Virus record (IMG/VR): IMGVR_UViG_3300029922_000055
Coordinates: 3,681-67,680 of that record
Reading direction: 5' to 3' (one strand)
Length of the DNA: 64,000 nt
From: a virus
Below are positions 1-63,277 of this stretch, piece after piece. The notes below the pieces were generated by a model. That model was not told where the DNA came from and searched no databases. It saw only the letters and a program-made list of their open reading frames with translations. The translations under genes and the position numbers were made by a program. The stretch's first letter is position 1, and each line of letters starts with the position of its first letter.

Positions 1-91
1 ATGATGAATGGAAAAACAAAATATTGGAGCTTTTTGAGTGAGATGTTTTTGAAAGATTTAGAATTGTTTTAGAGAAACTTATCAAAAGCTT

Positions 92-622
92 TTAGAGATA
101 CTTTTTGAAAAAGTCTTCGTTAAGTTTTTTCGATTCTTTCTTTTCTTTTTCTCTCTGACGTTCTCTTTCTGCATGGACTTTAGAACTTACTTCCGCCTTG
201 ACGCTGTTCTTATTCGGAAAGGAAGATGCGTTTGTTTCGTTCCTTCCCCAAATCCGAAGACAAATTTTCTTACTGGTCCATTTACCATGTTCATCTTCTA
301 AAGGACCTATATTACTTCGCGCCCTAGAAATGAATCTGACAGCAGTCGAAATTGTAGACCATTCAGAATCAGACAAATTGGGAACTTTTTTATATTGGCC
401 ACGATATTTAGAAACCTTTTTTAATATCTCTTCCAATTTTTTACTTTCTTCTTTACCCGCCTTTACGTTTGCTCCCACTTTTTGAGCATCCGCCGGGGTT
501 TGGCTTACATTTTTTGCTTCGTCAGACTCTCTAGTCATACGAATTTCCGATGGAGTCATATTGATTATCCTGTCAAATCTAGCCCAAAGAATAATTTTCC
601 GAATTGGTGTTTTAATATCCAT
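92..622 (-). CDS. DUF3140-like protein
   Basis: Motifs F..IINMTPSEI, LSDSEW....AVRFISR and C-terminal LRIWG resemble DUF3140 (VNMTxxEL...LMNWGH). TATAAATA lies 5 nt upstream of the ATG. Confidence 0.55.
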   Translation of the reverse strand: MDIKTPIRKIILWARFDRIINMTPSEIRMTRESDEAKNVSQTPADAQKVGANVKAGKEESKKLEEILKKVSKYRGQYKKVPNLSDSEWSTISTAVRFISRARSNIGPLEDEHGKWTSKKICLRIWGRNETNASSFPNKNSVKAEVSSKVHAERERQREKEKKESKKLNEDFFKKYL

Positions 623-627
623 AAGAT

Positions 628-635
628 TATTTATA
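628..635 (-). promoter_or_regulatory. T4-type late promoter TATAAATA (near-leaderless transcript)
   Basis: Exact TATAAATA on the minus strand immediately before the ATG at 622. Confidence 0.6.
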
Positions 636-637
636 CA

Positions 638-754
638 TTAAAGAGATTCTAGTTGCCTAAGAATCTCTAAAAGTTTCTCAATAGTTTCCGGAGTTCCTTT
701 TCCACATTTTATCTCAGCTAACAAATCTTTCAATTCGGTTAGAAGAGATTGCAT
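638..754 (-). CDS. Small hypothetical helical protein (38 aa, MQSLLTELKDLLAEIKCGKGTPETIEKLLEILRQLESL)
   Basis: Hand-translated. Fills the gap between 756..1442 and 92..622 and starts 1 nt after the upstream stop. Confidence 0.5.
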   Translation of the reverse strand: MQSLLTELKDLLAEIKCGKGTPETIEKLLEILRQLESL

Positions 755-755
755 T

Positions 756-1442
756 TTATTCTAGACCAAATCTCTTCTTGTTAATCTTTGCAAACTCTGT
801 TTCGTATTTTCCATTGACTCTAGAATCTTTTGAAAGAGAGATGGTAGGATGTTTCTTAATCTCATCACCTTTCTTCATAGCAATATCGATCAGCCATTCA
901 ACATCTTTTTTATCAATCTTTGGGTTGCTTCTCAAAAGGGATGCGCGAATGATTTCTCTACGTTCTTTAGTTTTCCCATTGCTAATAAATTGGTAAACGT
1001 CATGCAGAAGGTTTGCTAAAGGTTTTGGTAAAGTTGCTTCCCCGTTAGCTTTAGCTCTTACCAAAGTTCCAATAAGTGCGGCTCCTAAAATACTTAAACC
1101 TGGAATAGCTATCGCACCGATTTGAGAAAGACTTCCGATATCTTCCTTAAGCAAAATTTTCTCACGGATATTGTCAAGGGCTTCCTGAATATTTGCCAAA
1201 TCGTCTGCAATGTCTAGTTCGGTCACGACGGAGATTTCGGATTCGTTTAGTTCAATCGCATTAAACCTATCAAATGTTTCCGAAAAATTTTCTAAAAAGC
1301 TTTGAACGGGGGTATCTTCTTCTATTGAAAGATGTATTTCTTGCTCTTCGGTTTCTTGGACCTCTTGGATTTCAGTTCCATCAAAATCTAAACTAGTTCC
1401 ACCCAACATTGAATTGAGCTTAAATAATTGTTCTTTGTGCAT
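756..1442 (-). CDS. Hypothetical late protein: acidic N-terminal region, hydrophobic segment, basic C-terminus
   Basis: ORF track. GAGG RBS and TATAAATA (1461-1468) upstream. Confidence 0.7.
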   Translation of the reverse strand: MHKEQLFKLNSMLGGTSLDFDGTEIQEVQETEEQEIHLSIEEDTPVQSFLENFSETFDRFNAIELNESEISVVTELDIADDLANIQEALDNIREKILLKEDIGSLSQIGAIAIPGLSILGAALIGTLVRAKANGEATLPKPLANLLHDVYQFISNGKTKERREIIRASLLRSNPKIDKKDVEWLIDIAMKKGDEIKKHPTISLSKDSRVNGKYETEFAKINKKRFGLE

Positions 1443-1460
1443 GTTAGCCTCTTTTAGAAT

Positions 1461-1468
1461 TATTTATA
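1461..1468 (-). promoter_or_regulatory. T4-type late promoter TATAAATA
   Basis: Exact consensus in the intergenic gap upstream of 756..1442. Confidence 0.65.
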
Positions 1469-1494
1469 ATCACAAAGATTTTAAAAACTATTTC

Positions 1495-2139
1495 CTAAAA
1501 CGTCTTTAGAAAATTTTTACATTCTATTTTTGATTTCTGAGATTTGTTAATTTGTTTATCATAATAACCCATCAATTTTGTATATAAGGATTTCAAAAAT
1601 TGCTGGCGAGTAACTTGAAAATTTAAACAAACTCTATTAGAATTTCTTAATTGAATCTGGCCTTTTCCTAACGCGCCTATAGTTAAACAATCAAATTCTA
1701 TGTTTTCTACAGGAGTAAAAATAACATCACTTACAACAAATATATTTTTATCTATGGTATATTTAACCAGTAAAATAGAAAAATAATTATTATTAGTTTT
1801 ATACAATTCTTTTAATTTTTCTACGGAAGTCAGATTAGGCATATTAAATTTCGTATCTAATCTGTGAGACTTTACATCTATAATATGAATAAAATTATCA
1901 CAATCGACAACAGTGAAGTCTGCCATTGATTTCCTACTATTCTTAAATCTAGTCTCTTTTACTAAATCTGTAGGAAATATTTCTAAAAGATTGTTTTTAA
2001 TAATTTCTTCAAAAAGTTTTCCAATAGAACGAACATCATTTTTAGACAACTTTTCCTTTATTTCATTGTTATCGTTTAGAATAGTTTTCGTATTTTCTTC
2101 TATCGTTTTTATAACTGATGCGTCATATAATTTAGACAT
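1495..2139 (-). CDS. Putative PD-(D/E)xK restriction endonuclease
   Basis: E..., SMAD-x12-IDVKSH catalytic pattern. Directly downstream of a DNA methyltransferase. Confidence 0.6.
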   Translation of the reverse strand: MSKLYDASVIKTIEENTKTILNDNNEIKEKLSKNDVRSIGKLFEEIIKNNLLEIFPTDLVKETRFKNSRKSMADFTVVDCDNFIHIIDVKSHRLDTKFNMPNLTSVEKLKELYKTNNNYFSILLVKYTIDKNIFVVSDVIFTPVENIEFDCLTIGALGKGQIQLRNSNRVCLNFQVTRQQFLKSLYTKLMGYYDKQINKSQKSKIECKNFLKTF

Positions 2140-2179
2140 TTATATTCTTTCTGTTGTGATATTTAATAGCAAAAAAAAA

Positions 2180-3106
2180 TTAAGACTTCTGATTTCTCTC
2201 TAAAAATACACCATTGACGTAACCTTGTATATTTTTGTTTTCTTCGACTTTTTCTAAACGCTTTTCCGAAATCACACAATACTTTTCGTCAATCTCTATT
2301 CCAGAAAAATTTCTTCCCAATTTTTTAGACACGACGGCAGTTGTTCCAGATCCCATAAAAACATCAAACACTACACCATTTTCCGGGCAGCTTGCCAAAA
2401 TTAGTTTTGCTATTAGCTTTTCTGGCTTTTGGGTAGGATGAATTGTATTTTCCGGCATGGACCAATAAGGAACCGTAATATCATCCAAAAAATTCGAAGG
2501 AAACGTCATTCTAAATTTTCCAGATCCGTCTTCTACCCAATCTTTTGCAACGCCGTCTTGTTTATACGGAGCAATTACTTTCTTTTTGGTTTTAATAGAA
2601 TCTACATCAAAATAATATTCGTCAGTCATTGTAGCAAATAGGATGTCTTCGGAACTATTTTTCCAATTTTTTGAAGCACCTCTTCCCTTTTCTCTTTGCC
2701 AGACAATCCTATTTCTTATTATCGCATATTTTTCTAAAACTGTATATTGCTGAACAGAACATTTCCAATCACCACAAAGATATATTGTTGCTGTTGGTTT
2801 TAACAATCTTATAATTTTACTAAACCAGGAATCCAAATATTCTAAGTATTTGTCGTTAGTTGTTTTTTTAAAATTTATTTCTCCAAAATTTTTAGATAAA
2901 TTGTAGGGCGGATCTAATATCAAAAGGTCTACGAAATTGTCTGGAAAATAATCTAACGCTTCAAATAAATCATTATTAAAAATTTTATTTAAAACATTTT
3001 CGACAGGTTCGTTGCTCGTTATTTTATTCAATTTATTAGAATATGTTTCTAAATCTTTTTCATTAAAATCTATTGTTTTGTTTCTTTCTGATTTTTCTTT
3101 TATCAT
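2180..3106 (-). CDS. Site-specific DNA methyltransferase, N4-C/N6-A, beta class
   Basis: DPPY catalytic motif precedes HPTQKP and the DVFMGSGTT SAM-binding motif. Confidence 0.93.
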   Translation of the reverse strand: MIKEKSERNKTIDFNEKDLETYSNKLNKITSNEPVENVLNKIFNNDLFEALDYFPDNFVDLLILDPPYNLSKNFGEINFKKTTNDKYLEYLDSWFSKIIRLLKPTATIYLCGDWKCSVQQYTVLEKYAIIRNRIVWQREKGRGASKNWKNSSEDILFATMTDEYYFDVDSIKTKKKVIAPYKQDGVAKDWVEDGSGKFRMTFPSNFLDDITVPYWSMPENTIHPTQKPEKLIAKLILASCPENGVVFDVFMGSGTTAVVSKKLGRNFSGIEIDEKYCVISEKRLEKVEENKNIQGYVNGVFLERNQKS

Positions 3107-3210
3107 CTGTTCCTTTTATTAGTATTTAGTAATTTCATAAAATACTCCTGTATAGTTGCATGATGGATATCTTTTTTAATATTCCAAAAATATGATCTAT
3201 TCCAATTCAT
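3103..3210 (-). CDS. Micro-ORF (35 aa), last and degenerate member of the micro-ORF array
   Basis: Hand-translated MNWNRSYFWNIKKDIHHATIQEYFMKLLNTNKRNR. ATGA overlaps at both ends. Confidence 0.45.
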   Translation of the reverse strand: MNWNRSYFWNIKKDIHHATIQEYFMKLLNTNKRNR

Positions 3211-3383
3211 AAAAGTTTCCTGTAAAGTTCCCTAGAAGGTTTTCTTAAAATCATATTAAAATTACTATCAGCGAATATATAAAACCAATCATTAATAAAT
3301 GCAGACTCTATATTTCGACAACTATTTAATCCTGGATTCATATCAAAAAATTTATTTTCAATTTTATCAAACAATAGAATCAT
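3207..3383 (-). CDS. Micro-ORF (58 aa), array member with weak motif
   Basis: Hand-translated MILLFDKIENKFFDMNPGLNSCRNIESAFINDWFYIFADSNFNMILRKPSRELYRKLL. ATGA overlaps at both ends. Confidence 0.6.
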   Translation of the reverse strand: MILLFDKIENKFFDMNPGLNSCRNIESAFINDWFYIFADSNFNMILRKPSRELYRKLL

Positions 3384-3565
3384 CTTAAACTTTCTTTAAT
3401 AATCTTTCCAAACTCATATTCGTTTTTAATAGTTCTCATAATTCTGTTTAAGAAATCTCTATTCAAATAAAATTTCTTAAGGTCGGCACAAGAACTAGGA
3501 TCGCTATTATAAAACGCATAATGATTTTTTGCATCCCAATAAACAAAAGTTTCATACGTTTTCAT
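3380..3565 (-). CDS. Micro-ORF (61 aa), array member
   Basis: Start revised to MKTYETF (TGATG overlap with upstream stop). Motif DLKKFYLNRDFLN. Confidence 0.7.
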   Translation of the reverse strand: MKTYETFVYWDAKNHYAFYNSDPSSCADLKKFYLNRDFLNRIMRTIKNEYEFGKIIKESLR

Positions 3566-3741
3566 CAAAAATTCAACCAACCTTTCGTCAAACTTTTCTT
3601 AAAATAGTAATCCAAAGATTTGAAATAAAAATTATAACCATCGTAATCTATAAAAACTTTTTCAAAATCTAACCAAACCCAACCAACATGCACATTTTCA
3701 AAAATATTCCAGCCATTTATTCCTTTAGTATTGTATATCAT
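3565..3741 (-). CDS. Micro-ORF (58 aa), array member
   Basis: Hand-translated MIYNTKGINGWNIFENVHVGWVWLDFEKVFIDYDGYNFYFKSLDYYFKKSLTKGWLNF. Motif DFEKVFIDYDGYN. Confidence 0.7.
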   Translation of the reverse strand: MIYNTKGINGWNIFENVHVGWVWLDFEKVFIDYDGYNFYFKSLDYYFKKSLTKGWLNF

Positions 3742-3938
3742 TTGAAAAGTTCTTTATAAATATTTTCGAATTCAGTAAGACTCGCATGATGTCCTGCAAC
3801 AAAAAAATCATTTGAAACATCTTTGTTTATAAAATAATCCTTAAAATCTAATTTAGAAGTATAATTAAAAATATCCCGCCAATTGAAATGGATGATGCGA
3901 TAAACATTAACTCTTTGAATTTTCTTAAGTTTTCTCAT
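3738..3938 (-). CDS. Micro-ORF (66 aa), array member
   Basis: Motif DFKDYFINKDVSNDFF. ATGA overlaps. Confidence 0.72.
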   Translation of the reverse strand: MRKLKKIQRVNVYRIIHFNWRDIFNYTSKLDFKDYFINKDVSNDFFVAGHHASLTEFENIYKELFK

Positions 3939-4153
3939 AAACTCTTTCTAATATTTTCATAAACTCTTTTATAAACTCTTTTATAAAAACTCGGAACAAA
4001 ATAATTTATAATAAAGTCATTTCTATTGTCAGATTCCAGAAAATATTTCTCAAAGTCTACAGGGAAATCATAATCAAAACATCCAGCATGATAAGGAGGA
4101 TTTCTGCAAAGTTTTTCTAAATCTATCTTCATAAAATATTCAAAATTGTTCAT
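3935..4153 (-). CDS. Micro-ORF (72 aa), array member
   Basis: Motif DFEKYFLESDNRNDFI. Internal 12-bp duplication (YKRVYKRVY). Confidence 0.72.
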   Translation of the reverse strand: MNNFEYFMKIDLEKLCRNPPYHAGCFDYDFPVDFEKYFLESDNRNDFIINYFVPSFYKRVYKRVYENIRKSL

Positions 4154-4337
4154 AAATTTTGTTCCAAGGCTTTCCGAAAACTTCTTTTATAAAATTATTT
4201 TGACAATCATTATCTAAAAATGTTTCTAAAAAGTCTAATTCATCTTGGCCCATAATAAGAGCTTTTGTATCATATCCGTAAGTAAAAATGACATAAGAAC
4301 ATGCTAAATAAAATCCAGAAAATTTTTCATGAATCAT
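4140..4337 (-). CDS. Micro-ORF (65 aa), array member
   Basis: Motif DFLETFLDNDCQNNFI. Overlaps both neighbours. Confidence 0.72.
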   Translation of the reverse strand: MIHEKFSGFYLACSYVIFTYGYDTKALIMGQDELDFLETFLDNDCQNNFIKEVFGKPWNKIYEQF

Positions 4338-4527
4338 GGAAATCCTTTAACATTTCTTCAAAAAATCCTACATAACTTTTTCTATTAAAACCTACATAAC
4401 TTTTTATATTAAAATTTTTAACATCGTATTCTAAAAAGATTTTCTTAAAGTCTAGTAAAAGTTTTATATTCCAAGTTTCGAAACCATTTTCCAAATCCCA
4501 TCTATAAAATGTTTCAAAGGTTTTCAT
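4327..4527 (-). CDS. Micro-ORF (66 aa), array member
   Basis: Motif DFKKIFLEYDVKN. Starts MKTFETF. Internal duplication KSYVGF x2. Confidence 0.72.
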   Translation of the reverse strand: MKTFETFYRWDLENGFETWNIKLLLDFKKIFLEYDVKNFNIKSYVGFNRKSYVGFFEEMLKDFHDS

Positions 4528-4684
4528 AAAAAGCTTTCCAGAAAGTAATCGTATAATTTTTCTTCAAAAATAAATTTTTCGTTTCATATTTTAAGAAAGA
4601 TTTTTTAAAATCTGCACCAGAACCAAATCCTAAATCATATCCAAATTTTTTATCACAAATTATAATATTAGAATATTTTATCAT
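4514..4684 (-). CDS. Micro-ORF (56 aa), array member
   Basis: Hand-translated MIKYSNIIICDKKFGYDLGFGSGADFKKSFLKYETKNLFLKKNYTITFWKAFYENL. Confidence 0.7.
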   Translation of the reverse strand: MIKYSNIIICDKKFGYDLGFGSGADFKKSFLKYETKNLFLKKNYTITFWKAFYENL

Positions 4685-4835
4685 AAAAAGCTTTCCAATT
4701 TGTCGGTGGTCTTTCTGTCATTATACAATTTGATAAATGATAGTCTAAAAACCATTTTTCAAAACAGGGAATTCTTCCAGAGCACCAGTTTAAGGTTTTA
4801 GGATTTATTAAAAAGAAATCTCGAAAATCATGCAC
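4668..4835 (-). CDS. Micro-ORF (55 aa, GTG start), first array member
   Basis: Hand-translated MHDFRDFFLINPKTLNWCSGRIPCFEKWFLDYHLSNCIMTERPPTNWKAFYDKIF. GGAG lies 7 nt upstream, inside the ligase 3' end. Confidence 0.65.
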   Translation of the reverse strand: MHDFRDFFLINPKTLNWCSGRIPCFEKWFLDYHLSNCIMTERPPTNWKAFYDKIF

Positions 4836-6648
4836 AGATATACTCCAGAAACTCCTCTACGGAAAGAATCTTAATTCCTAATTCTCTCGCCTTGGTAGCT
4901 TTCGAAGAAGTAGTAGAAGGATCCTTAACAACGAGCACTTGAGTATTCTTAGAAACCGAACTTGCTTCTGACCAACCAGCGGCCTCAACTTTTACTAAAT
5001 CGTCTCCATGAAATCTTACTCCAGTGATTACATATTTACCTGCGTTTACTGACATCTTTTTCTCCTGTTTAATTTGTTTTAAATTTACGAACTCGAAGAA
5101 CAATTCTTTTTTGTCAACCATTTCGGAAATAACGTTTGAATTGAAATTTGAAAGATTGTTCAATTTGTTTATTTCTGTAGCATCTTCGAAAAACTCTATC
5201 AAATCGAACCCAGAATCTACAATCTTTTGAGCAAGCCTTTCACCACAACTATTCAGAAAAGTATTGTAGACGATCTTAACATCAACTGTTCCGGAAATAT
5301 TTTCTAAAAATTTGTTAATCTTTTCTATATGACTTTCTCCTAGTCCATAAACGTTTCCGGAAAACTTTTTATTATACTTTATCAAATCATATACAGTATA
5401 AATCTCTTCGCTTTCAAAAAACTTTTCTATAATCTTTTCGGAAAGTCCTTCCGGATAAAAGTATGAAGAAAATGTATAAAGCCTTGACGAGTTTAAATTC
5501 TCACAGCTAGGATTTACACAAAATATATGCTCTCCATTTTGTTCTCCGTTAGAATTACAAACAGGGCATTTAGGAACAATTTCGGAAAAACTTTGCTTAA
5601 ATATTGTATTAAGATTTTTCGAAATTGTTCTCTCTACATGAGGAATAATTTCATTGGCTCTAGAAATTTCTACCACATGGTCTGCAAAAACTGGCCAGCA
5701 ATCCTTTTCTAAAGCCTTTGCATAGCTTCCTAGACTTGCCTTAGAGATAGTGGCTCCAGCTAATTGAACCGGCTCTAGAATGGCTACAGGAGTTAATCTT
5801 TGGTCTTTTCCTATGCTCCATTTGACTGACAGCAGTTTTGTATTTACTACTTCATCATCAAATTTGAAAGCGAGATATTCAGGGCCAGTTTTGAAAACTA
5901 CTCCGTCAGCATCATATGTATAATCGTCTTTATATTTTTTCTTGAATGCTTTCACATCAGTAAAAATTAAATTATCTACAGGAATTTGTTTTTCTACATT
6001 GAACCAAGTTTCCCAAGGATATTTTTCGGTTATGTCTTCCTTAGTATCTATATTTGTAAATGTATATGAAATAACATCTACCCATTTGAAAATATTCTCC
6101 CAATCATCTTGCCTAGAAATTGCACCAGCTACAGCATTCCTAGAAGATTTAGAAATATCGAATCCATTGTCTATTGTGTAATTTACTTTTTTAATCGCCG
6201 CCTCACTTCGAACAGCAAAGTTTTCTTTTACGGGAACAGTTTTCGGAAACTTTTTCTCAAATTTCGCGGTCCTGTCTATTCCTATATTATCTTTTCCTCT
6301 GGTCGCAACTTTATATTGATGCCCATTTTTATATGTGGCTAAAATAGAATTTCCATCAATTTTTGTAGATTGTGTAGTATTGGCATTAAGAAACTTTTTT
6401 AAAACGTTTATATCTTTTGTCTTAATTTCAATAGAACCAACTGGAATAGGATGTTGAGTTTTTTCCTTCTCATCAATTCCCTTCAAAACGTAACCATGGC
6501 CGACTTCAGTTAAAATACCATGATTAGGATCTAGCTTCCGGACTTGTTCTAACTTTTCGTCAAATTCTTTATCAGTAGCTGACGAAGTTCCCGTATCATA
6601 ATATTCTTGAGATAGTTGTTTAATTTCTTCTACTAGTTTTTGTAACAT
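4828..6648 (-). CDS. ligA: NAD-dependent DNA ligase
   Basis: Domain Ia YY..G....D.EFD, KIDG adenylation motif, TRG, DGVVFK, OB fold LTPVAILEPVQLAGATIS, C4 zinc finger, C-terminal BRCT. Confidence 0.95.
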   Translation of the reverse strand: MLQKLVEEIKQLSQEYYDTGTSSATDKEFDEKLEQVRKLDPNHGILTEVGHGYVLKGIDEKEKTQHPIPVGSIEIKTKDINVLKKFLNANTTQSTKIDGNSILATYKNGHQYKVATRGKDNIGIDRTAKFEKKFPKTVPVKENFAVRSEAAIKKVNYTIDNGFDISKSSRNAVAGAISRQDDWENIFKWVDVISYTFTNIDTKEDITEKYPWETWFNVEKQIPVDNLIFTDVKAFKKKYKDDYTYDADGVVFKTGPEYLAFKFDDEVVNTKLLSVKWSIGKDQRLTPVAILEPVQLAGATISKASLGSYAKALEKDCWPVFADHVVEISRANEIIPHVERTISKNLNTIFKQSFSEIVPKCPVCNSNGEQNGEHIFCVNPSCENLNSSRLYTFSSYFYPEGLSEKIIEKFFESEEIYTVYDLIKYNKKFSGNVYGLGESHIEKINKFLENISGTVDVKIVYNTFLNSCGERLAQKIVDSGFDLIEFFEDATEINKLNNLSNFNSNVISEMVDKKELFFEFVNLKQIKQEKKMSVNAGKYVITGVRFHGDDLVKVEAAGWSEASSVSKNTQVLVVKDPSTTSSKATKARELGIKILSVEEFLEYICA

Positions 6649-6679
6649 TTTTAATTATCCTTTCAATGGGGTCTAAAAC

Positions 6680-6718
6680 AAGATAACAAATTTAATCTAG
6701 CTTGTCAAGGACTTTTTA
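6680..6718 (-). promoter_or_regulatory. Sigma70-type early promoter for ligase, micro-ORF array and methyltransferase
   Basis: AAAAAGTCC-TTGACA (6708-6703), 17-bp spacer, TG-n-TATCTT (6685-6680). Same architecture as the promoters at 45209 and 49625. Confidence 0.8.
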
Positions 6719-7338
6719 GAGTATTTCCGAAAAATTTCTTCAAACCCTTTCGGAAGTCTTTTGAACTTTCCTCGAAGATGTATATTTTTCATGCTTCTAA
6801 GTTCTTTTATATCTGACAGCCCCACACTTTGTTTGAACCATGTCCGATGCTTTTTAACATAATTATAAAAGTTTAGATAAGTATATGCAACAAAAACATA
6901 CTCTTTTATATCTATGGGAAGAGAAAATTCTTTAATCATTTTTACGGAACGTCTTTCACAATCTAATTCCATATCTATAATTGATTGTATAATTTCCGAA
7001 ATTCTTTTTTTGGGTAATTCAATTTCGTGGTCGAGCCATGACCACAAATCTTCAGACATGTTAGAGCCACTTTCGGAAAGTTTTAGAAAAATTGGTTCTT
7101 GTTGTATATATTGTAGAAAATGATTAAACTCATGAACTAATACTTCTAGCCATCCTTCATCTTTGATTGATATTTCTAATTTCTTATCAATCTCGTCAAA
7201 AGTTCCTCCTACAGTATTTTTTCCTACTGTTAAATCATCCATAGAAAGAACTAAAGTAAAACGATACTTCTTTAGAGTAGAATCCACATAATCTAAAAAA
7301 TTTTGCGTTGGTTCATCTAAAGAAGATATCTTAATCAT
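6697..7338 (-). CDS. Putative zinc metallopeptidase-like protein (HExxH)
   Basis: VLVHEFNHFLQ plus downstream ELDCE. Confidence 0.6.
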   Translation of the reverse strand: MIKISSLDEPTQNFLDYVDSTLKKYRFTLVLSMDDLTVGKNTVGGTFDEIDKKLEISIKDEGWLEVLVHEFNHFLQYIQQEPIFLKLSESGSNMSEDLWSWLDHEIELPKKRISEIIQSIIDMELDCERRSVKMIKEFSLPIDIKEYVFVAYTYLNFYNYVKKHRTWFKQSVGLSDIKELRSMKNIHLRGKFKRLPKGFEEIFRKYSKKSLTS

Positions 7339-8327
7339 TACTCAAACGCCCTAATTATTTCTCCGACTAACTTATGCCTTTGAATATCTTGAAGGCCGAA
7401 TTTTACCATACCAACATCATCCACATCTTTCAAAAGTTCTACAACGCATTCTAATCCGGATTTTTCTGGTTTTGAAGATTTTATATCAGATTGGCTTCTA
7501 TCTCCAGTAATACAAACTTTAGTATTGTGACAGATACGAGTTAAAAGAGTTAGAATTTCATGCTTAGATAAATTCTGTGCTTCATCAATTATTATGAAAG
7601 CATTTTCGAAATTTCCTCCTCGAACGAAACCAACAGGAGTGTATAAGATTTTATTTTCTTTTAGTTTTTGCTCATATCCACGTTCGCCAAGCATTTCCAA
7701 AAAGGTTTCGGCAATTGGAGAAACATACACACCATATTTCTCGTCTAAATTTCCAGGAAGATATCCAATAGCATTTCCAACAGTTATCATAGGACGGACT
7801 ACAATAATTTTATCGTATCTACCATCATCTAGCATTTTGAGTGACATGCAAACACTTAGCTTTGATTTTCCAGTTCCTGCATGACCATACAACACAGAAA
7901 TAGTTTTATTCTTAATCATTTTAATAGCTAGTTCTTGATTTTCTGTTCTAGGACTGAAATCTTCGCCTTTATGGTTCTTATAAATCCCTTTGTATTTGCT
8001 TCCTGCTAAAGGTTTTGGTAAGAGCGAAGATATCAATTCATCTATATCAGAATCTTGAATATCGAAGTTTCTATCAAATGCATCAAAAAGCTTTTCTAAA
8101 ACTATAGCCGCTTTTCGACAATCATTTATTTCATTAGATGTGATAGTAAATCTTTCGCCCTTTGTATCAATCTTTACGTTAAAACTTTTCGAAATGTTTA
8201 CTAAATCTGTAGAAGCAAGTTTTCCTAACAAGTCTCTATCTGCCACATAGATAACTGTAGGAGATTGTTTGACTTCATCTACCTTTTCGATTTCCTTCAC
8301 CTTAGCTTTCTTAGTAATTTTCGGCAT
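7338..8327 (-). CDS. phoH: PhoH-like ATPase
   Basis: GHAGTGKS Walker A, IGYLPGNLDEK, RGGNF, IIDEAQN, TGDRSQSD, DIQRH. Confidence 0.95.
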   Translation of the reverse strand: MPKITKKAKVKEIEKVDEVKQSPTVIYVADRDLLGKLASTDLVNISKSFNVKIDTKGERFTITSNEINDCRKAAIVLEKLFDAFDRNFDIQDSDIDELISSLLPKPLAGSKYKGIYKNHKGEDFSPRTENQELAIKMIKNKTISVLYGHAGTGKSKLSVCMSLKMLDDGRYDKIIVVRPMITVGNAIGYLPGNLDEKYGVYVSPIAETFLEMLGERGYEQKLKENKILYTPVGFVRGGNFENAFIIIDEAQNLSKHEILTLLTRICHNTKVCITGDRSQSDIKSSKPEKSGLECVVELLKDVDDVGMVKFGLQDIQRHKLVGEIIRAFE

Positions 8328-8355
8328 AAATCTCCAAAATGGTTAATAGTAAATT

Positions 8356-8532
8356 CTAGATAAAACTTAAATCATCTGACTCTAAATCTTCTTCATTATC
8401 AAAAAACTTATCATCAATAGATTCTACGTCACGTTTTTCGGAAAGTTTGTGCATGTGTGCGAAATCTTCCGGAAATGGATTATTCTTAATTATTTCATCA
8501 AACTGGTCGAAAGAAAAATTTTCACTTTCCAT
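8356..8532 (-). CDS. Small acidic hypothetical protein (58 aa)
   Basis: Start revised to MESENF with an AAGGAG RBS. Confidence 0.55.
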   Translation of the reverse strand: MESENFSFDQFDEIIKNNPFPEDFAHMHKLSEKRDVESIDDKFFDNEEDLESDDLSFI

Positions 8533-8794
8533 CTTTATCGTCTCCTTCCATATCTTTCTTAGATTCAAATTTATTTGTCAGCGCATATGTTCCAGCAGAT
8601 ACGCCACAAAGCGCAGTCAGAAGTATTAACATGTTATTTGTAATATCTTGATGATGGACTACAGAAAAAATTGCTATATAAATCGCAGCATAGTAACTTG
8701 ATACTTTTACTAACCTCTTAGAACTTGAAACTCCGTTCTTATCTTGAAGAAAATTTCCGAAATATTTCAAAACTTTTTTAGTAAATTCCCACAC
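8522..8794 (-). CDS. Putative holin (two transmembrane segments)
   Basis: DxNGxxSSKRL followed by two hydrophobic helices and a charged tail. AAGGAG RBS, GTG start. Confidence 0.55.
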   Translation of the reverse strand: MWEFTKKVLKYFGNFLQDKNGVSSSKRLVKVSSYYAAIYIAIFSVVHHQDITNNMLILLTALCGVSAGTYALTNKFESKKDMEGDDKDGK

Positions 8795-8960
8795 GTTTAG
8801 TCTCCTTTGGTCAATGTCCTGTCAGTATATAGTTGTCTGGCAAATTGCCTGATTTTTTAGACGCTTCTGCTTCAACTGCTTGTGTTGTCCAAGTCTCACA
8901 TCGAATCGGCATCCGTAGAGCACAAGCAACTCCTTGTGCTATTTGTAAGGCTAATTTTTC
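8795..8960 (-). ncRNA. Probable TnpB omegaRNA (scaffold plus guide) overlapping the tnpB 3' end; boundaries approximate
   Basis: This is the established location of omegaRNA. Hairpin AGCACAAG-GAGTTG-CTTGTGCT and GGATG...GCGTCT pairing are visible. Confidence 0.5.
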
Positions 8961-10025
8961 TATGTTCTTAGCGGCGTTAATGTCTCTGTCTAGGATAGCA
9001 TGGCAATGAGGGCATTCCCAAGTTCTATCTTCTAATGTTAAATCATCATTGATACAACCACATTCATTACAAGTTTTAGAAGAAGGGAACCAACGATCAA
9101 TTGCTTGAATTTGTTTTTGATTCCACACTGCTTTGTATTTTAAGAAATTGATGAACTGACTCCAACCAGCATCTGAAATTGCTCTAGCTAGTTTTCTATT
9201 TTTCACCATTCCTTTGACATTTAAAGATTCTATTCCTATAAAGTCAAACCTCTTGATTAGGTCTAAAGAAAGATTGTGATGAAACCAACTTCTTTGATTA
9301 GCTACTTTTTCATGGACTCTAGCAACCTTCACTCTTGTTTTCTTGTAACGGCTAGAACCCACCACTTTTCGACTCGGGTTCTTTTGAGTCTTTCTTAGCT
9401 TCGCTTGACTCTTGCGAAGCCATCTTGGATTCTCAATTTTTTCTCCATTAGATAAAATCAAGAAATCTTTCAATCCTAAATCTAATCCTACGATTTTATT
9501 AGTTTGTTCAAATCTAGGACTCGCTTCTTCTTCTACGAGGATAGATGCAAAATACTTTCCAGAAGGAGTTTTCGAAATTGTTACTGACACGAATTTAGAA
9601 TTTTTCTTAGGCAAACGATCTATTCGAATTTCTATGTCTCCTATCTTTTCTAACCAAATTGAATTTTGTTCTAATCTGAATTTTTGATTTGGGAGTCTGA
9701 AAGATTGGTGGTTGGATTTCTTTTTGAATTGTGGTCTACCAATTTTCTTTTTTCTAGATTTTGAAAAATATTGAGTTTTGAATTTTTCAAAATCTCTTAC
9801 TTTTTGTTGTAGTGCTCCCGCATTGACTTCCGTCATCCATAAGAATTCTAATTTTAGTTCAGGTGGTGATTTGTAAATTGGCTTAGTGTTAATTTCTTTA
9901 TCGTATGAATTAAAAATATCTACCATTTGATTCCAAACAAATCTTACACAACCAAAAGTCTTAGATAAAATTATCTTCTGTTCTTCAGTTGGATAGATTC
10001 TATATTTGTAAGCTCGTTTGGTCAT
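8811..10025 (-). mobile_element. tnpB: IS200/IS605-family RNA-guided endonuclease TnpB, stand-alone with no TnpA
   Basis: Start revised to MTKRAYKYRIYPT. RuvC residues GLDLG, IESLNV and DRDINAA are intact. CNEC/CPHC zinc finger. Confidence 0.93.
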
Positions 10026-10029
10026 ATAA

Positions 10030-10578
10030 CTATTTAATAAAAATATATGCAACCAAAAAAGCGAGCCCAACACCAAAACCTATACCAGAATCTCTCCAAA
10101 AATGTTCTTCGGAAACTCTTACATTTTTCAAAGAATCTACATTAGTTTTCATTTCGGAAATAGTCTCATCAGCATTTTTAACATTATCTAAGCAAATTCC
10201 TAAAAGCGCGGAATCTCTTTCCATCAAGTATTTTGCTTCTATAGCTTGCTTGGCTTGGTCTTGAGAAATATCTAAAAACTTTGTAGTGTCTTTTGAATAA
10301 TAAACACTATCAAACAACGTGACTTTTTTTGCAGAATCTTTTCCGGAAAATACTGAGTCAAGATTTCCAGAAACTTTTTCGAAATGATTGACCACGACTT
10401 TCTGCTTGACTATTACAGTATCATGAATATAACTCTGCCTATCTTTGTATAATGTATCTACTCTTGCAACAACATTTTGAATAATTTTGGATTCTTTTGG
10501 TTGAAAAAATTGCTTCCCTCCAAAAAACCCTATTAGCAAAGCAACAACAATTAGCACCCACCACATTTTTGTATTCAT
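10030..10578 (-). CDS. Membrane protein with N- and C-terminal hydrophobic segments, spanin-like
   Basis: N-terminal TM, coiled region, C-terminal GIGFGVGLAFLVAYIF. Would adjoin the holin if TnpB were removed. Confidence 0.45.
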   Translation of the reverse strand: MNTKMWWVLIVVALLIGFFGGKQFFQPKESKIIQNVVARVDTLYKDRQSYIHDTVIVKQKVVVNHFEKVSGNLDSVFSGKDSAKKVTLFDSVYYSKDTTKFLDISQDQAKQAIEAKYLMERDSALLGICLDNVKNADETISEMKTNVDSLKNVRVSEEHFWRDSGIGFGVGLAFLVAYIFIK

Positions 10579-10952
10579 GTCAATGTCCTCGGATTAAATT
10601 TAGGCTGAATTAACCAATCTTTTTTCTCAGCATTAGATAAAGTAAAAATGAATACCGTATCATTTTCTTCTGGGAGATTTAATATTTCTATCATATCCCA
10701 ATCTTCTAAAAGTAAAGCGACCGAGTTTCTTCTCAACAAATCATCTTCGGAAAAATTATTAAAGCTTGGTCGAGTAGAGCGCAACAAAAACATTTCTTTG
10801 AAGTGACAAAGATAATAATGAGAGTCTATGTCTTTGTAAAGGTGACAGGAAGGATATAAGATTTTTCTTTTCTTATCTCCTACACCCATTCTCATCAAAG
10901 TTTCGTTTATAATATTTTCATTAACTTTCGGAATAATTTCTAACAAATCCAT
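10575..10952 (-). CDS. regA: Translational repressor RegA
   Basis: ETLMRMGV...LYPSCHL...YYLCHFKEM...RRNSVALLLEDW matches T4 RegA. Confidence 0.92.
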   Translation of the reverse strand: MDLLEIIPKVNENIINETLMRMGVGDKKRKILYPSCHLYKDIDSHYYLCHFKEMFLLRSTRPSFNNFSEDDLLRRNSVALLLEDWDMIEILNLPEENDTVFIFTLSNAEKKDWLIQPKFNPRTLT

Positions 10953-11483
10953 TTAACAGTCCCCAGGTTCTACCCTTAAAAACTCGTAAGCAATAGTAGT
11001 AGAAAATGTTATTTCTTCGTCTACTCCATTTGTCATAGATAGTGAACCTAAATCTGTTAAGAAAGCATTCTCGAAAATAAATTTCATCTTAGTTCTTTTC
11101 ATATTATCTAAAAACAATAATTTAAGTTCCTTTATGCAATTCAATCTAAAATATTTCTGACTATCCATATTATGCTCTTCTCTCAATTCACTAATCCAAG
11201 TTCTAAAAATAAGATAATTCATACATCCTTCGGAAACTTTGAAATCCATAGTAATAGAATTCAAATCATCATTTATTTTAGATACGGGATGATTGATAGA
11301 ATAGTTCATAAAATTTGATTTTACTAATTCTAAAGTATATGAAGGAAACGTTACCGACTTTACATAATTATCGAACAACGACATATCATTTATATAGGCG
11401 GAAATAGTTGGAGAGAAGCCAGGAATATTAGAAAATACGGCTTGCCATTTATCGCTGTGTTGAACATTTGGAAAGCCGGACAT
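10953..11483 (-). CDS. Tail-tube-fold protein (gp3-like tail terminator)
   Basis: V.SVTFPS...LLFLDN....KFIFENAFLTDLGSL...F..TIAY pattern of the gp3/gp19 family. Confidence 0.6.
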   Translation of the reverse strand: MSGFPNVQHSDKWQAVFSNIPGFSPTISAYINDMSLFDNYVKSVTFPSYTLELVKSNFMNYSINHPVSKINDDLNSITMDFKVSEGCMNYLIFRTWISELREEHNMDSQKYFRLNCIKELKLLFLDNMKRTKMKFIFENAFLTDLGSLSMTNGVDEEITFSTTIAYEFLRVEPGDC

Positions 11484-42797: not shown

Positions 42798-42805
42798 TAT
42801 TTATA
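42798..42805 (-). promoter_or_regulatory. T4-type late promoter for the sheath-tube-baseplate operon
   Basis: Exact TATAAATA between terL and the sheath gene. A second TAAATA lies at 42773-42778. Confidence 0.65.
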
Positions 42806-42808
42806 AAT

Positions 42809-44434
42809 TTAGTTATAACCATTTCCGAAATATATATCATTGTTTTGAGAGTTTTGGAAATTTTGGGGGGTATCTTGGAAATCGTTTGAAAAAGCATTTC
42901 CGAAAAAGTTTGAATGAATATCTTCCGAACTTAAGAATGTTGGAACTTCTTCATCTGAACCTTTATTAGATTTTCCGGAATCTTTTGCATTAGTTGTTGC
43001 ATCATAAAATCCAGAGATTAGATAATACAACCCAATCCACATGGAACAAACAGTATCGTCATTTTCGTTTTGTCCAATTGCTTGCCAAACTCCAGGATTT
43101 TTCTCTTCAAATCTACTCAATTCATAGAGAGTCTTCATATCATTTATTTGAAGCCAACCATTTTCTATATACTTTTTCATTAGCAAAACACCTGCTAGTT
43201 TTGTTTTTTTTGTAGAACGAATACCTAGGCCATTCTTATCGAAATTTATAAGTTTGTCACAATCGTATTCGTAAAAAATCTTATCACAAACCAATTCTCC
43301 TATATCATTACTTTCAACCATCATCTCTGCTTTATTATAATATTCTGAAATACCCACACATATACCAGCAAACGTTTCCGGGTCGGTTTCATTATTGCGA
43401 AAAACTGCAACTTGGTCTATATCTTTTTCGGAATTTATTTTTAATACTTGAACAACAGAATAATCAGAACCAGTGCCTCTACTTGGATCGACCCCTAATA
43501 CATATTCACAGCCATCTATAGGTAATTCATATATCAGCATTGCTCCATTGTATTTATTTTCTATTGGTGTTCTTGTATCTATTCTTTCTAAAATTCCAGG
43601 AGTTATTAAGGTATTTGAACTTCCTTGGAATTGGCCCTCATGCTCCTGAAGGAACGCTTGTGTTGTCATATCTTTTTTTGTATCTTCTGCCCATTTTTCA
43701 TCTCTATCTGGATGGTCTCTCCAAGTTATTTTAATAGGATAAAAATTGTTTTCTCCTTTAACTGCCTTTGAATAAATTTCATAAAAATGATTCAAGCCTT
43801 TTGGCGTAGATACCATAATAAGCTTTGATTTTTTTCCAGATGACATAATAGAATAAACAGAATTCCAAAATTGCTCCCAGATATGCGGTGGCACGAAACT
43901 TGCTTCGTCAAGAAAAACTAATCCTGAAGTTTTTCCACGGACAGAATCTGACGAACTAGAAGCAGCTAAAATAGTCATTCCGTTTTCAAACTGAACAGAA
44001 TTCTTATTCCAACCGCCATTAACAACCCCTTTTTGAAGCCATAGAGGAAATTTCTGAATCGCTATTTTAATTTTTTCCAAAGTATCTTTGGCTGTTGCTT
44101 CTTTGTTTGCTAATATAATAATATTGTCATCTTTTTCAAATAGAGAATAATGAGTAAGAAAAATACTAGTCATCATCCCCTTCCCGACCTGCCTAGCTGC
44201 CAGAAGACATATGTGTTTTTTTCCATTTGGGGGATCGGACATAGCTTTTAATACTTTTTTTTGATATCCATACAATTTTACTAATTGCCTACCACCATCA
44301 ATAGTTTGAATATAAAAATAATGTTCCGCAAAATATATTATATCATTTTTACATTTAACATATTCGTCTATTTGTTCTTTCGTTATTACTACCTTTTCTC
44401 CAGCGGCGCGAAGGGATGGGTTTCCTTGATACAT
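42809..44434 (-). CDS. terL: Terminase large subunit (T4 gp17-like)
   Basis: YQGNP.L, EY.KC..D..YFAE, RQVGK Walker A, LDEASF Walker B, STPKG.NHFY, GVDPSRG.G.DYS nuclease. Confidence 0.96.
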   Translation of the reverse strand: MYQGNPSLRAAGEKVVITKEQIDEYVKCKNDIIYFAEHYFYIQTIDGGRQLVKLYGYQKKVLKAMSDPPNGKKHICLLAARQVGKGMMTSIFLTHYSLFEKDDNIIILANKEATAKDTLEKIKIAIQKFPLWLQKGVVNGGWNKNSVQFENGMTILAASSSSDSVRGKTSGLVFLDEASFVPPHIWEQFWNSVYSIMSSGKKSKLIMVSTPKGLNHFYEIYSKAVKGENNFYPIKITWRDHPDRDEKWAEDTKKDMTTQAFLQEHEGQFQGSSNTLITPGILERIDTRTPIENKYNGAMLIYELPIDGCEYVLGVDPSRGTGSDYSVVQVLKINSEKDIDQVAVFRNNETDPETFAGICVGISEYYNKAEMMVESNDIGELVCDKIFYEYDCDKLINFDKNGLGIRSTKKTKLAGVLLMKKYIENGWLQINDMKTLYELSRFEEKNPGVWQAIGQNENDDTVCSMWIGLYYLISGFYDATTNAKDSGKSNKGSDEEVPTFLSSEDIHSNFFGNAFSNDFQDTPQNFQNSQNNDIYFGNGYN

Positions 44435-45099
44435 TATTTTATTCTTTGTCCTGGTTCAAAACTCCAACCAAGCTCTTTCCAAGTTTTTCCAATATCACTT
44501 TCTTTCAAATCTTTATCATAAAAAAGACTCCAAGACTTAACGGTATTATCGTTAATAAATCTACATCTATTTCTAATTGTAATTCTACTTAAACCGATTC
44601 CTTTATTAGCAAATATTAAAGATTCGAACTTTCCATATGGCGTAATATAATATCCAATAAATCCAGTATGTTTTGCTCCTGGGTATTTTCCTTTCTGAGC
44701 GATTGACATTTTAAGTTTGTCTTCTGGAAGATGTTGGCGACCCCGTTGTAAATTACCCATTTTAGTTTTATGTTCTTCCGTATGGTGTTTACCTTTGAAA
44801 CCATTAACAGAATATATTTTTCCACCCTTACCACCTAATTGTAAATTATATATATCGTCTCTTTTTAAAAATTCTTTATTTACAATCTCAATTTCTTTGT
44901 TATAAGCTTCTTCTTTGTTATCAAACTCAAAAAGTATATCTTTTCTAAAATTTTTTCTGCCATATTTTTTAAACGCGAATTTTAATGCTTTTCCGCTGCC
45001 CTTATAATAATGGTCACGCGAATCCGAATATTTATGAACACCAATATATATTTTTCCGTTTACTAAATTCGTAGTTTGATAGATGTAATATTTCTTCAT
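44434..45099 (-). CDS. Free-standing GIY-YIG (Seg-like) homing endonuclease
   Basis: YIYQTTNLVNGKIYIGVH...Y.GSG, YNL..GG, NUMOD3-like KHHTEEHK repeat. Confidence 0.9.
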   Translation of the reverse strand: MKKYYIYQTTNLVNGKIYIGVHKYSDSRDHYYKGSGKALKFAFKKYGRKNFRKDILFEFDNKEEAYNKEIEIVNKEFLKRDDIYNLQLGGKGGKIYSVNGFKGKHHTEEHKTKMGNLQRGRQHLPEDKLKMSIAQKGKYPGAKHTGFIGYYITPYGKFESLIFANKGIGLSRITIRNRCRFINDNTVKSWSLFYDKDLKESDIGKTWKELGWSFEPGQRIK

Positions 45100-46617: not shown

Positions 46618-47250
46618 TTAGTGTTTCTTTTTCGAATAGTGTGTATTAGCTACTGTATTATTAAACCCCAAATCAAGCAACCTAGCTTTTCCATTAAAAT
46701 CTCCCCAAGAAGCCAGTCTACAAATATCTCCTGGAGGCATATCAAAGTTTATCATTAAATCTACTACTTGATAAACTATAGAGTCCTCGTCATTCAGCAT
46801 TTCTTTAGTTTTTTCGGATATATTTTCCTTTTTTATTTTTCCGCGATAATCTAAATCAGCTTCGGAAATAGCTTTTGTAAAATCTTGCCAAGAAACTTTC
46901 GAAAGAGCTTGAAATTTGCTTGGAGTCATCTTGGTTCCTTTTTTCATAATCAACCAAGAACAATCATCTTCTTCATCTTTATCAATCAATTCAGAAATAA
47001 TATCAGGATACATTTTTTGCATTCCCCAATCGCCTTCTGTATTGTTCTGGTCATATCCCTTTTCGTTTTTAGCAAGTTTTAATACATTTCCGTCACCCAT
47101 GTCATATACAATTCTAGAAGATCCGGTTCCAATTTTCGGAAAGTATCTAGCAACGTATTGAGCCTTTTTCGAAAAACTTTGAAAAGTATCTATAGAATCT
47201 TTATTAAACTTTTCTTCATCTTCTTTTAAGTAGAATTTTTTGAAAGACAT
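46618..47250 (-). CDS. Protein-kinase-like fold protein with capsid-targeting-like N-terminus
   Basis: IGTGSSRIVY, VLKLA, QNNTE, WLIM, GD.....WG, LLDLG. Confidence 0.65.
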   Translation of the reverse strand: MSFKKFYLKEDEEKFNKDSIDTFQSFSKKAQYVARYFPKIGTGSSRIVYDMGDGNVLKLAKNEKGYDQNNTEGDWGMQKMYPDIISELIDKDEEDDCSWLIMKKGTKMTPSKFQALSKVSWQDFTKAISEADLDYRGKIKKENISEKTKEMLNDEDSIVYQVVDLMINFDMPPGDICRLASWGDFNGKARLLDLGFNNTVANTHYSKKKH

Positions 47251-47253
47251 AAT

Positions 47254-47889
47254 TTATTTCCTATGTTTCTTATAAAAAGTGTTAAAAAAATCCTTCTGCA
47301 AACCCGGATCGAGTATAACTAATCTATTTCCAATTTTTCCCCATGAAGACGTTTTAATTACATCACCAACAAGCAATCCTAAAGAGAATGTTAAATCCTG
47401 AACCAAATCTAAGAAGTGAGAAGTTTTTAATAGTTCTTTGGTTTCTTCTGAGACATCTTTCTTTTCTTTGTAATTAACTAGTTTCATTTCTTTCATAGCT
47501 TTTTGAAAAGTTTTGAAAGGTATTTTAGAAATCTTTTCGAAAGTTTCCTCATCAACTGGCTTGGCTTTTTCCATAACTATCCAATATATTTTATCACCTT
47601 GACATTTCTTTTTTAATGCCGGAACCAAATCTCCGAAAAGTTTATGGATTTGATCTGACTGTTCCATCAAATTTTGGCCTAATCCTTTTTCGTTCCAGGC
47701 CAATTTCAATACAGAATTTTTAGAAAGGTCGAATACTAATCTGGAACTACCTTTGCCAATTTGATTTAGATTTTCTTTACAAAATTTAATTTTTTCTTCA
47801 AATGTTTCTAAAGAATCTAAATGCACGAAATTGAATTTACTTTCGGCAAGTTTTTCAGATTCTATTAAATAAAAATTTCTAAAAGCCAT
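47254..47889 (-). CDS. Protein-kinase-like fold protein, tandem paralog
   Basis: IGKGSSRLVF, VLKLA, QNLME, WIVMEK, GD.....WG, ILDPG. Confidence 0.65.
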   Translation of the reverse strand: MAFRNFYLIESEKLAESKFNFVHLDSLETFEEKIKFCKENLNQIGKGSSRLVFDLSKNSVLKLAWNEKGLGQNLMEQSDQIHKLFGDLVPALKKKCQGDKIYWIVMEKAKPVDEETFEKISKIPFKTFQKAMKEMKLVNYKEKKDVSEETKELLKTSHFLDLVQDLTFSLGLLVGDVIKTSSWGKIGNRLVILDPGLQKDFFNTFYKKHRK

Positions 47890-57959: not shown

Positions 57960-58013
57960 TTTTTATGTTCCCCTTTTAGAATTATTTATAAAAAATTAAA
58001 GACGAAATGTTAT

Positions 58014-63204: not shown

Positions 63205-63277
63205 AAACAAACTAAAACTATTCCGAAAGTATTTATAAAAAGTCCCCAAAAGCTACTAAACAAATCCAACCAAAAGC

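Follow-up and report, generated by a model that had tools for sequence, protein, structure and literature searches.

Introduction

In large phages, much of the variable genome codes for small proteins whose function is unknown, and those that have been studied in T4, few in number, are counter-defence factors. In passages of Srikant et al. (2022; PMC9391042), the small non-essential T4 genes tifA, dmd, 61.2, nrdC.5, ipI and ipIII are described as neutralising host defences, and small counter-defence genes of this phage as being gained and lost by recombination at short homologies. Hyperplastic regions are presented, in parts of Comeau et al. (2014; PMC4122927), as holders of adaptive accessory genes. 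For the T4 internal proteins (IPs), sections of PMC9026906 state that capsid targeting is set mainly by residues 4 and 7 and processing by residues 8 and 10, that the prohead protease (gp21) cleaves after L/I-x-E, and that the proteins are basic. Here, we describe an array of small overlapping reading frames in a 64,000-nucleotide stretch of viral DNA (the window), which comprises bases 3681-67680 of the 67,680-base IMG/VR record IMGVR_UViG_3300029922_000055 (completeness estimate 31%). Eight of the ten reading frames, m1-m8, almost certainly belong to one paralogous family, which evolves by birth and death and whose surviving copies are mostly under purifying selection.

Results

Eight of ten overlapping reading frames form one family

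Ten open reading frames (ORFs) of 35-72 aa, five of them below 60 aa, tile positions 3103-4835 on the minus strand, between a gene for an NAD-dependent DNA ligase and one for a DNA methyltransferase (MTase). They are listed here with scores from a leave-one-out hidden Markov model (HMM) test, in which each ORF was compared with 500 composition-matched shuffles.

m1: 4668..4835, minus strand; family member of 55 aa with a GTG start; leave-one-out 18.5 bits against a shuffle maximum of 12.4
m2: 4514..4684, minus strand; family member of 56 aa; leave-one-out 21.4 bits
m3: 4327..4527, minus strand; family member of 66 aa, starting MKTFETF, with a 24-nt tandem duplication at 4362-4415; leave-one-out 35.3 bits
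m4: 4140..4337, minus strand; family member of 65 aa; leave-one-out 18.9 bits
m5: 3935..4153, minus strand; family member of 72 aa, with a tail repeat of 12-nt period at 3937-3987; leave-one-out 19.6 bits
m6: 3738..3938, minus strand; family member of 66 aa; leave-one-out 26.7 bits
m7: 3565..3741, minus strand; family member of 58 aa; leave-one-out 17.5 bits against a shuffle maximum of 14.8
m8: 3380..3565, minus strand; family member of 61 aa from its ATG (66 aa from a TTG at 3580), starting MKTYETF; leave-one-out 22.5 bits
m9: 3207..3383, minus strand; conserved gene of 58 aa, not a detectable family member
m10: 3103..3210, minus strand; ORF of 35 aa, outside the family; its stop codon and the start codon of the MTase overlap as ATGA

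The first-pass annotation of this DNA had claimed eight to ten paralogs sharing a short core motif. All eight motif strings that it quoted are present, and the similarity of m1-m8 exceeds that of composition-matched shuffles: their leave-one-out scores were 17.5-35.3 bits, and none of the 500 shuffles of any member reached them (shuffle maxima 8.0-14.8). The count of family members settles at eight, since m9 and m10 fell inside their shuffle distributions, with 1.0 bit for m9 (238 of 500 shuffles equally good) and 3.3 bits for m10 (129 of 500). Both failed again against a profile of 24 sequences, where m9 scored 1.5 bits, inside the shuffle range. When the eight-member HMM was run against 860 six-frame fragments of the window, no further copy was found (best 9.5 bits, E 0.058), nor did the family profile find an additional copy in the rest of the 67.7-kb record. 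Within the family, m3 and m8 are each other's closest paralogs.

Going from the ligase to the MTase, successive genes overlap by 8, 17, 14, 11, 14, 4, 4, 1 (16 with the TTG start of m8), 4, 4 and 4 nt, and there is no intergenic gap. The gapless tiling by ten overlapping ORFs, coupled at one end to the ligase (8-nt overlap with m1) and at the other to the MTase (ATGA shared with m10), was thus as the first reading had it. The tiling is not an artefact of a single assembly, because independent contigs from a DNA sequencing run of another sample (X3) reproduce the array, covering 3458-4262 with 0 differences and 4244-6012 with 1 difference. Many DNA contigs of runs X3 and X6 stop within the array with unlike loose ends (e.g., at 3583, 4329, 4402 and 4556), and in one X3 record 26 other letters link 3981 to an earlier position, 3932; these contig ends hint at micro-diversity in the population, and no joint reached threshold. 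Contigs of an RNA-library run, X20, cover the MTase (2153-3006, identical) and a ligase variant, and such libraries can contain DNA. When RNA-library runs X20 and X24 were compared with 1400-7400, no contig lay on 3008-4615, a gap that proves nothing either way, as only contigs were compared.

Array genes are under constraint

The comparison set consisted of two related contigs: L004, from a metagenome, and the viral contig L002, which ends inside the array. In both, the same ligase (82% identity) is followed by the same array. Starts, frames, overlaps and gene order are kept between the window and L004, and the ratio of nonsynonymous to synonymous substitution rates (dN/dS, Nei-Gojobori) for this comparison was 0.34 for m1, 0.22 for m5, 0.35 for m7, 0.12 for m8 and 0.20 for m9, at dS values of 0.36-0.90; the ligase gave 0.19. 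The L004 orthologs of m1 and m9 are 62% and 74% identical to their counterparts, and for m2 the identity is 93%, the pair differing by 5 nonsynonymous and 1 synonymous changes. As near-identical DNA (dS about 0-0.03), m2 and m3 together carry 10 nonsynonymous and 1 synonymous changes, which are too few to interpret. The first 18 residues of m10 are identical in L004, whose contig stops there, and the variant P0018 has ATG at the position of the GTG of m1. Taking together the dN/dS values, the conserved starts, frames and overlaps, and the Shine-Dalgarno (SD)-like elements described below, we identify m1-m8 and m9, on sequence evidence, as protein-coding genes under constraint.

The array had been described as hypervariable and diversifying, a description that did not hold: the five ortholog pairs have dN/dS of 0.12-0.35, and the patchiness of the array is no greater than that of the ligase. 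Window and L004 identity per 75 nt ranged over 0.51-1.00 in the array and over 0.56-0.99 in the ligase (4828-6648, compared with L004 5551-7365). Because the ligase is equally patchy, mosaicism characterises the lineage rather than the array, and the mosaic ligase suggests frequent recombination within this lineage.

The array evolves by birth and death

Whole units differ between relatives. An extra unit, m7b', lies between m7 and m8 in L004, as a 182-nt insertion with the 12-nt repeat TGGTTGAATTTT at both junctions. The L004 copy of m4 is a pseudogene, with an in-frame stop and a 12-nt gap in the core, and the L004 gene at the position of m6 is only 37% identical to m6 and of a different paralog type. 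Among other relatives, P0012 is a chimera with an m8-like N-terminal half and an m3-like C-terminal half, P0020 and P0022 are further m7b-type copies, and P0015 and P0016 are two more divergent types. At 55% identity, the 34 collected sequences (some identical between sources) formed 11 clusters, or 12 if the m3/m8 cluster bridged by the chimera is split, compared with eight types in the window.

Smaller changes affect the tails. Tandem Repeats Finder (TRF) detected a repeat of period 12 with 4.4 copies at 3937-3987, in the tail of m5, and one of period 24 with 2.2 copies at 4362-4415, in m3. The internal duplications that had been reported in two members are therefore real, and they are missing from orthologs or variants: the m5 duplication is not in the m5 ortholog, and the m3 duplication is not in P0013 or P0010. 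Forms of m3 thus exist with and without the 8-codon duplication, and P0010 carries a different tail duplication.

We conclude that the array evolves by birth and death, as whole units are gained and lost, copies become pseudogenes, paralogs form chimeras and tails acquire short tandem duplications, with the surviving copies mostly under purifying selection. The closest paralogs in the window share 40% identity over 40 aa, so the family is old, its birth and death continue, and it is no fresh amplification. The earlier comparison with a gene accordion is accordingly right as to copy content, which varies between relatives (the 182-nt extra unit, the pseudogene, the replaced copy, the chimera and the micro-duplications), and wrong as to fresh amplification, given the divergence of even the best pair.

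Junctions and expression signals

The genes are joined by a short repeated element.

Junction 17-mer: 4524..4540, minus strand, with a second exact copy at 4681-4697; the first joins the m2 tail W-K-A-F-Y-E with the m3 ATG, the second the m1 tail with the m2 start

With up to 3 mismatches allowed, the 17-mer had 4 matches in the window, compared with 0.91 expected. The exact copies at 4524 and 4681 are as first reported, whereas the degenerate copies that had been placed at 3207 and 3935 do not lie within 3 ungapped mismatches. The tails of m1 and m2, W-K-A-F-Y-(D/E), are encoded by TGG AAA GCT TTT TAT GA, which contains the ATG of the following gene as well as a purine-rich SD-like element. 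The same layout recurs at other junctions (GGA[A/G]...TTT ATG), most starts have a GGA/GAG SD-like element 7-12 nt upstream, and each gene begins within, or directly at, the final codons of the one before it. Because the genes run head to tail, with no intergenic space and with SD-like elements upstream, they are probably made from a single transcript by coupled translation. With the SD-like element and the next start codon both inside the tail, a crossover from one tail to another would yield a complete, translatable gene, and part of the tail conservation may reflect constraint at the nucleotide level.

A candidate promoter lies upstream of the ligase.

Sigma70-like promoter candidate: 6680..6708, minus strand; TTGACA-17-TATCTT, TG-extended, overlapping the last codons of the upstream gene

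The candidate is identical in L004, at 4893-4921. The sigma70 promoter proposed on the first reading does correspond to a consensus match (6708..6680), but such sites are not enriched in 1-11000, where 40 were counted compared with 46.3 +/- 7.0 in shuffles. No minus-strand terminator-like stem-loop was found in 1-11000. In L004 (4928-5536) and L002 (7378-7986), an extra gene of 202 aa, missing from the window, stands between a 213-aa gene and the ligase, and in these relatives TTGACA-17-TATCTT precedes this extra gene instead of the ligase.

The octamer TATAAATA, which we take to be the T4 late-promoter consensus, is absent from the minus strand between 1469 and 27667. In T4, the ip genes are preceded by early-type promoters, and TATAAATA does not occur within 120 nt of them; because they also lack it, the lack of a late promoter at the array is no objection to reading the products as internal proteins. 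Elsewhere in the window, TATAAATA occurs on the minus strand at 628-635, 1461-1468, 42798-42805, 57983-57990 and 63230-63237, in short intergenic gaps directly upstream of genes; its total count of 12 is at chance level (12.25).

Database and structure searches

None of the ten ORFs matched Pfam, PHROGs, NCBIfam or PADLOC at curated cut-offs or at E <0.01, and the family profile had 0 matches at E <=10 among PDB sequences, which bears out the first-pass annotation in recognising no family. A profile search of 1.84 billion representative proteins gave 13 matches at E <=0.001, of which 12 are proteins of 55-68 aa of the same kind, and all 12 of these believable relatives come from close relatives of the array phage. 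The remaining match, a 394-aa repeat protein (E 4e-4), is regarded as spurious. Word-indexed searches returned 14 and 15 small matches and, as weak evidence, no longer or fused homologs among their results. The divergent type P0015, used as a query in viral contigs, had no match. Three weak 25-residue matches to an m8 query were rejected by the family HMM. Relatives of the MTase were found at six loci in viral contigs, in unrelated neighbourhoods with no array-like genes nearby. From these results, m1-m8 constitute a new protein family, although small accessory genes of large phages are already known to expand in tandem within single lineages.

The m1-m8 proteins are 20-29% aromatic, compared with 11% in large proteins of the same phage, have pI values of 4.5-9.5 and are hydrophilic overall. 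AlphaFold2 (AF2) models of m2 and m5, with predicted local distance difference test (pLDDT) scores of 55.7 and 62.9, both show an N-terminal hairpin followed by three helices. At E <=1, Foldseek found no match to the AF2 models in PDB or BFVD, the best Z from VIA-align was 3.4 among 48,161 chains, and the ESM Atlas yielded no usable feature match (pLDDT of its own model, 0.46).

Resemblance to T4 internal proteins

In the T4 record, IpII and IpIII start with MKTYQEFIAE, IpI with MKTFKEFTST, and the 54-aa early protein gp61.1 with MKTFKEFIKE. The starts of m8 (MKTYETF) and m3 (MKTFETF) match these at 5 of 7 residues, including positions 4 and 7. An aromatic residue at position 4 together with F or I at position 7 occurs in five of the eight members (m1, m2, m3, m5 and m8), and the full MKT[FY]xxF in two. 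As a DNA pattern, MKT[FY]xxF occurs 5 times in T4 (168,903 b), compared with 0 in the reversed control, and 4 of these are at ipI, ipII, ipIII and 61.1; it was not found in five unrelated viral records (681,940 b). In the record of the array phage, it heads 2 of 409 ATG-ORFs, both in the array. Five distant T4-like phages (804,575 b) contained it 3 times (control, 1): two of the three head ORFs of at least 125 aa, the starts of proteins from a pelagiphage (HTVC008M; MKTFTDF) and a Desulfovibrio phage (SRB7757; MKTYSEF), and the third heads an ORF of 14 aa. From these counts, chance alone is an unlikely explanation of the N-terminal resemblance between array and T4, and the motif may be old or widespread in the T4 superfamily.

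The likeness that had been noted to T4 internal-protein N-termini therefore stands for 5 of 7 residues; the L/I-x-E cleavage motif is missing, and there is no homology beyond the N-terminus. In T4, the L/I-x-E that ends the propeptide lies at residues 8-10 in IPII and IPIII and at 17-19 in IPI. Inspection by eye of the first 25 residues of the eight members found L/I-x-E only in m4 (residues 2-4) and m7 (12-14), and E at position 10 in none. The family HMM matched T4 IPs at E 15 or worse (Z=300), and hhalign to gp61.1 aligned 15 columns only, with a probability of 4%. Because m3 and m8 are sister paralogs, their MKT match represents one evolutionary event.

The T4 gene 61.1, which encodes a hypothetical protein of 54 aa, adjoins the dmd-tifA-61.2 region; its product shares its first seven residues with IpI and has I-K-E at 8-10, so that its N-terminus looks like a full capsid-targeting sequence.

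The phage and its neighbouring genes

The window is 33% G+C, and the minus strand holds 59 of its 61 larger ORFs. PHROG matches of T4 type include a regA-like translation repressor, tail tube, sheath, large terminase (TerL), sheath stabiliser/gp3, baseplate wedge and hub, endonuclease VII and homing endonucleases. TerL is <40% identical to that of any cultured phage, the nearest being cyanophages, the pelagiphage HTVC008M and a Desulfovibrio phage. The sequencing runs that contain the array stretch are labelled as peat metagenomes, and a blastn search of 2000-7000 against cultured phages gave a single 113-nt match, which is irrelevant. The array resides in a variable part of the genome of a deeply branching T4-like myovirus known only from peat metagenomes. 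Genes for a prohead protease and a scaffold are not on the 67.7-kb record, whose completeness is put at 31%. The genes flanking the array are:

NAD-dependent DNA ligase: 4828..6648, minus strand; PF03120 7.9e-15, PF01653 1e-10, BRCT; phrog_3869 2.4e-89; its last 8 nt overlap the m1 start
Type II N6/N4 DNA methyltransferase: 2180..3106, minus strand; PF01555 1.1e-42; PADLOC MTase_II 4.2e-66

Just after the MTase, an ORF of 214 aa (1495-2139, minus strand) has weak similarity to HincII (PF09226 E 6e-4, below cut-off; PADLOC REase_II E 0.011), and the two may form a phage-borne type II restriction-modification pair. Farther away, between regA and phoH, a gene for a TnpB-type RNA-guided endonuclease (8811-10076, minus strand; NF040570 3.9e-93, phrog_506 1e-115) has a 498-nt gap (10077-10574) upstream; an Rfam scan of 1-11000 gave zero matches, hence no match to an omega-RNA model near this gene. 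Adjacent genes of 210-211 aa at 46618-47250 and 47254-47889 (minus strand) both match phrog_4301 (function unknown) and are a second tandem paralog pair. Genes of homing-endonuclease type lie beside the large terminase gene and nearby, at 44434-45099 and 48489-49463 (minus strand; phrog_314 1e-50 and HNH phrog_559 1e-56).

Discussion

Possible functions of the array proteins

Our favoured interpretation, held at about even confidence, is that the constrained, lineage-restricted tandem family m1-m8, which lies beside genes for DNA metabolism and DNA modification, supplies accessory proteins whose targets would be host factors bound in the course of takeover or counter-defence. We infer such a role because small T4 genes (tifA, dmd, 61.2, nrdC.5, ipI and ipIII) have roles of this kind and hyperplastic regions store adaptive genes. 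The products would be small, soluble, aromatic-rich alpha/beta proteins, acting as stoichiometric binders of host (or phage) macromolecules, and different paralogs would serve different targets or hosts. The array would then be a set of accessory host-takeover or counter-defence factors of the kind that fills the hyperplastic regions of T4. Several points weigh against this proposal. The role in host interaction is itself a deduction, transcription and translation are likewise predicted, and the promoter is a consensus match only. Sequence, profile and structure searches gave no family, fold or defence-related match, and the fold is uncertain because the AF2 models are weak. Purifying selection on most members and old divergence of paralogs fit any conserved accessory role and not specifically an arms race, and the few changes in m2 and m3 do not show the purifying pattern of the other members.

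The same genes could instead serve the phage's own nucleic-acid transactions, as small DNA- or RNA-binding regulators or as partners of the flanking ligase, MTase and putative restriction enzyme. We consider this unlikely: the operon-like arrangement with the ligase, the MTase and the weak HincII-like ORF, the three short helices predicted for the C-terminal half, and purifying selection all agree with it, but the proteins matched no helix-turn-helix or other nucleic-acid-binding family, the neighbourhoods of MTase relatives in other viral contigs lack genes of this kind, and eight diverged copies with gains, losses and pseudogenes between close relatives would be unusual for a core regulatory partner. 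A nearly neutral expansion of ORFans, driven by ready duplication of the junction module and leaving copies of little function, would explain the pseudogene, the copy loss, the tail slippage and the chimeras, as well as the confinement of the family to one phage lineage and the 10 nonsynonymous and 1 synonymous changes in m2 and m3. It is nevertheless very unlikely in view of the dN/dS of 0.12-0.35 for five ortholog pairs at dS of 0.36-0.90, the starts, overlaps and frames conserved in L004, and the packaging constraint on phage genomes referred to in a portion of PMC9391042.

The T4-like nature of the phage raises another alternative, that m1-m8 are internal head proteins comparable to T4 IPI, IPII and IPIII, in which an N-terminus M-x-x-F/Y-x-x-F would direct loading into the prohead core, with injection alongside the DNA as a first-response counter-defence. 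The MKTYETF and MKTFETF starts of m8 and m3 resemble those of T4 Ip proteins and gp61.1, positions 4 and 7 hold an aromatic residue and F or I, respectively, in five of the eight members, and MKT[FY]xxF is rare in control DNA. The match counts only once, though, given that m3 and m8 are sisters; L/I-x-E is not at the expected place, and position 10 is never E; at position 6 the array proteins have T or K, where T4 and both distant examples have an acidic residue; the N-terminus belongs to the domain common to all paralogs, with AF2 strand 1 right after it; there is no homology to T4 IPs (E at least 15; hhalign 4%); and the pI range of 4.5-9.5 differs from the basic T4 IPs. On balance, an internal-protein role seems improbable. 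A distinctly improbable elaboration is that the array works as a self-propagating library of cassettes for proteins that are packaged in the capsid and injected. Each unit would carry an uncleaved targeting N-terminus of T4 type, and its ribosome-binding site and start codon would lie in the tail of the unit before it, so that unequal crossovers between tails would create or remove a ready-to-express injected effector. If true, a distant branch of the superfamily would be using the T4 internal-protein strategy in a new genetic format.

Whatever the targets, the array is a compact example of how a repertoire is built, from a unit of ~180 nt whose tail doubles as the translation start of the next gene. 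The unit has been copied, lost, fused and slipped while surviving copies remain constrained. If a host or cultured relative were found, these eight paralogs (12 types when relatives are counted) would provide a ready panel for defence-system or interaction screens.

Comparison with known systems

Like the array proteins, T4 IPI, IPII and IPIII (and gp61.1) are small, diverse, non-core proteins of a T4-type phage, and their locus varies between relatives. They share 5 of 7 N-terminal residues with the starts of m3 and m8, including both targeting positions. In contrast, the IPs contain an L/I-x-E processing site that the array proteins lack, there is no sequence homology between the two groups, and the T4 ip genes are separate, with their own promoters, whereas the array is one overlapping set of tandem paralogs.

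The accessory genes of T4 hyperplastic regions (the dmd-tifA-61.2 'anti-TA island' and nrdC.5), as treated in parts of Srikant et al. (2022; PMC9391042), with the regional concept from sections of Comeau et al. (2014; PMC4122927), offer a second comparison. As in the array, short ORFs are packed between core modules, vary between close relatives, recombine at short homologies and lack wider homologs. The T4 anti-TA genes have demonstrated targets, whereas the array proteins are known from sequence alone, and the array differs in that all eight members are paralogs of one domain. Hyperplastic regions are described, in the relevant part of PMC4122927, as flanked by promoter-early/stem-loop (PeSL) elements; none lie between the array genes, because there are no spacers, and no dedicated PeSL model was run.

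Gene accordions (T4 tifA amplification and poxvirus K3L, as cited in passages of PMC9391042) are like the array in having a tandem small unit, recombination at short repeats and a copy number that varies between strains. They are, however, recent and near-identical amplifications, whereas paralogs in the array reach at best 40% identity over 40 aa, only the 17-nt junction is identical, and orthologs remain recognisable across strains.

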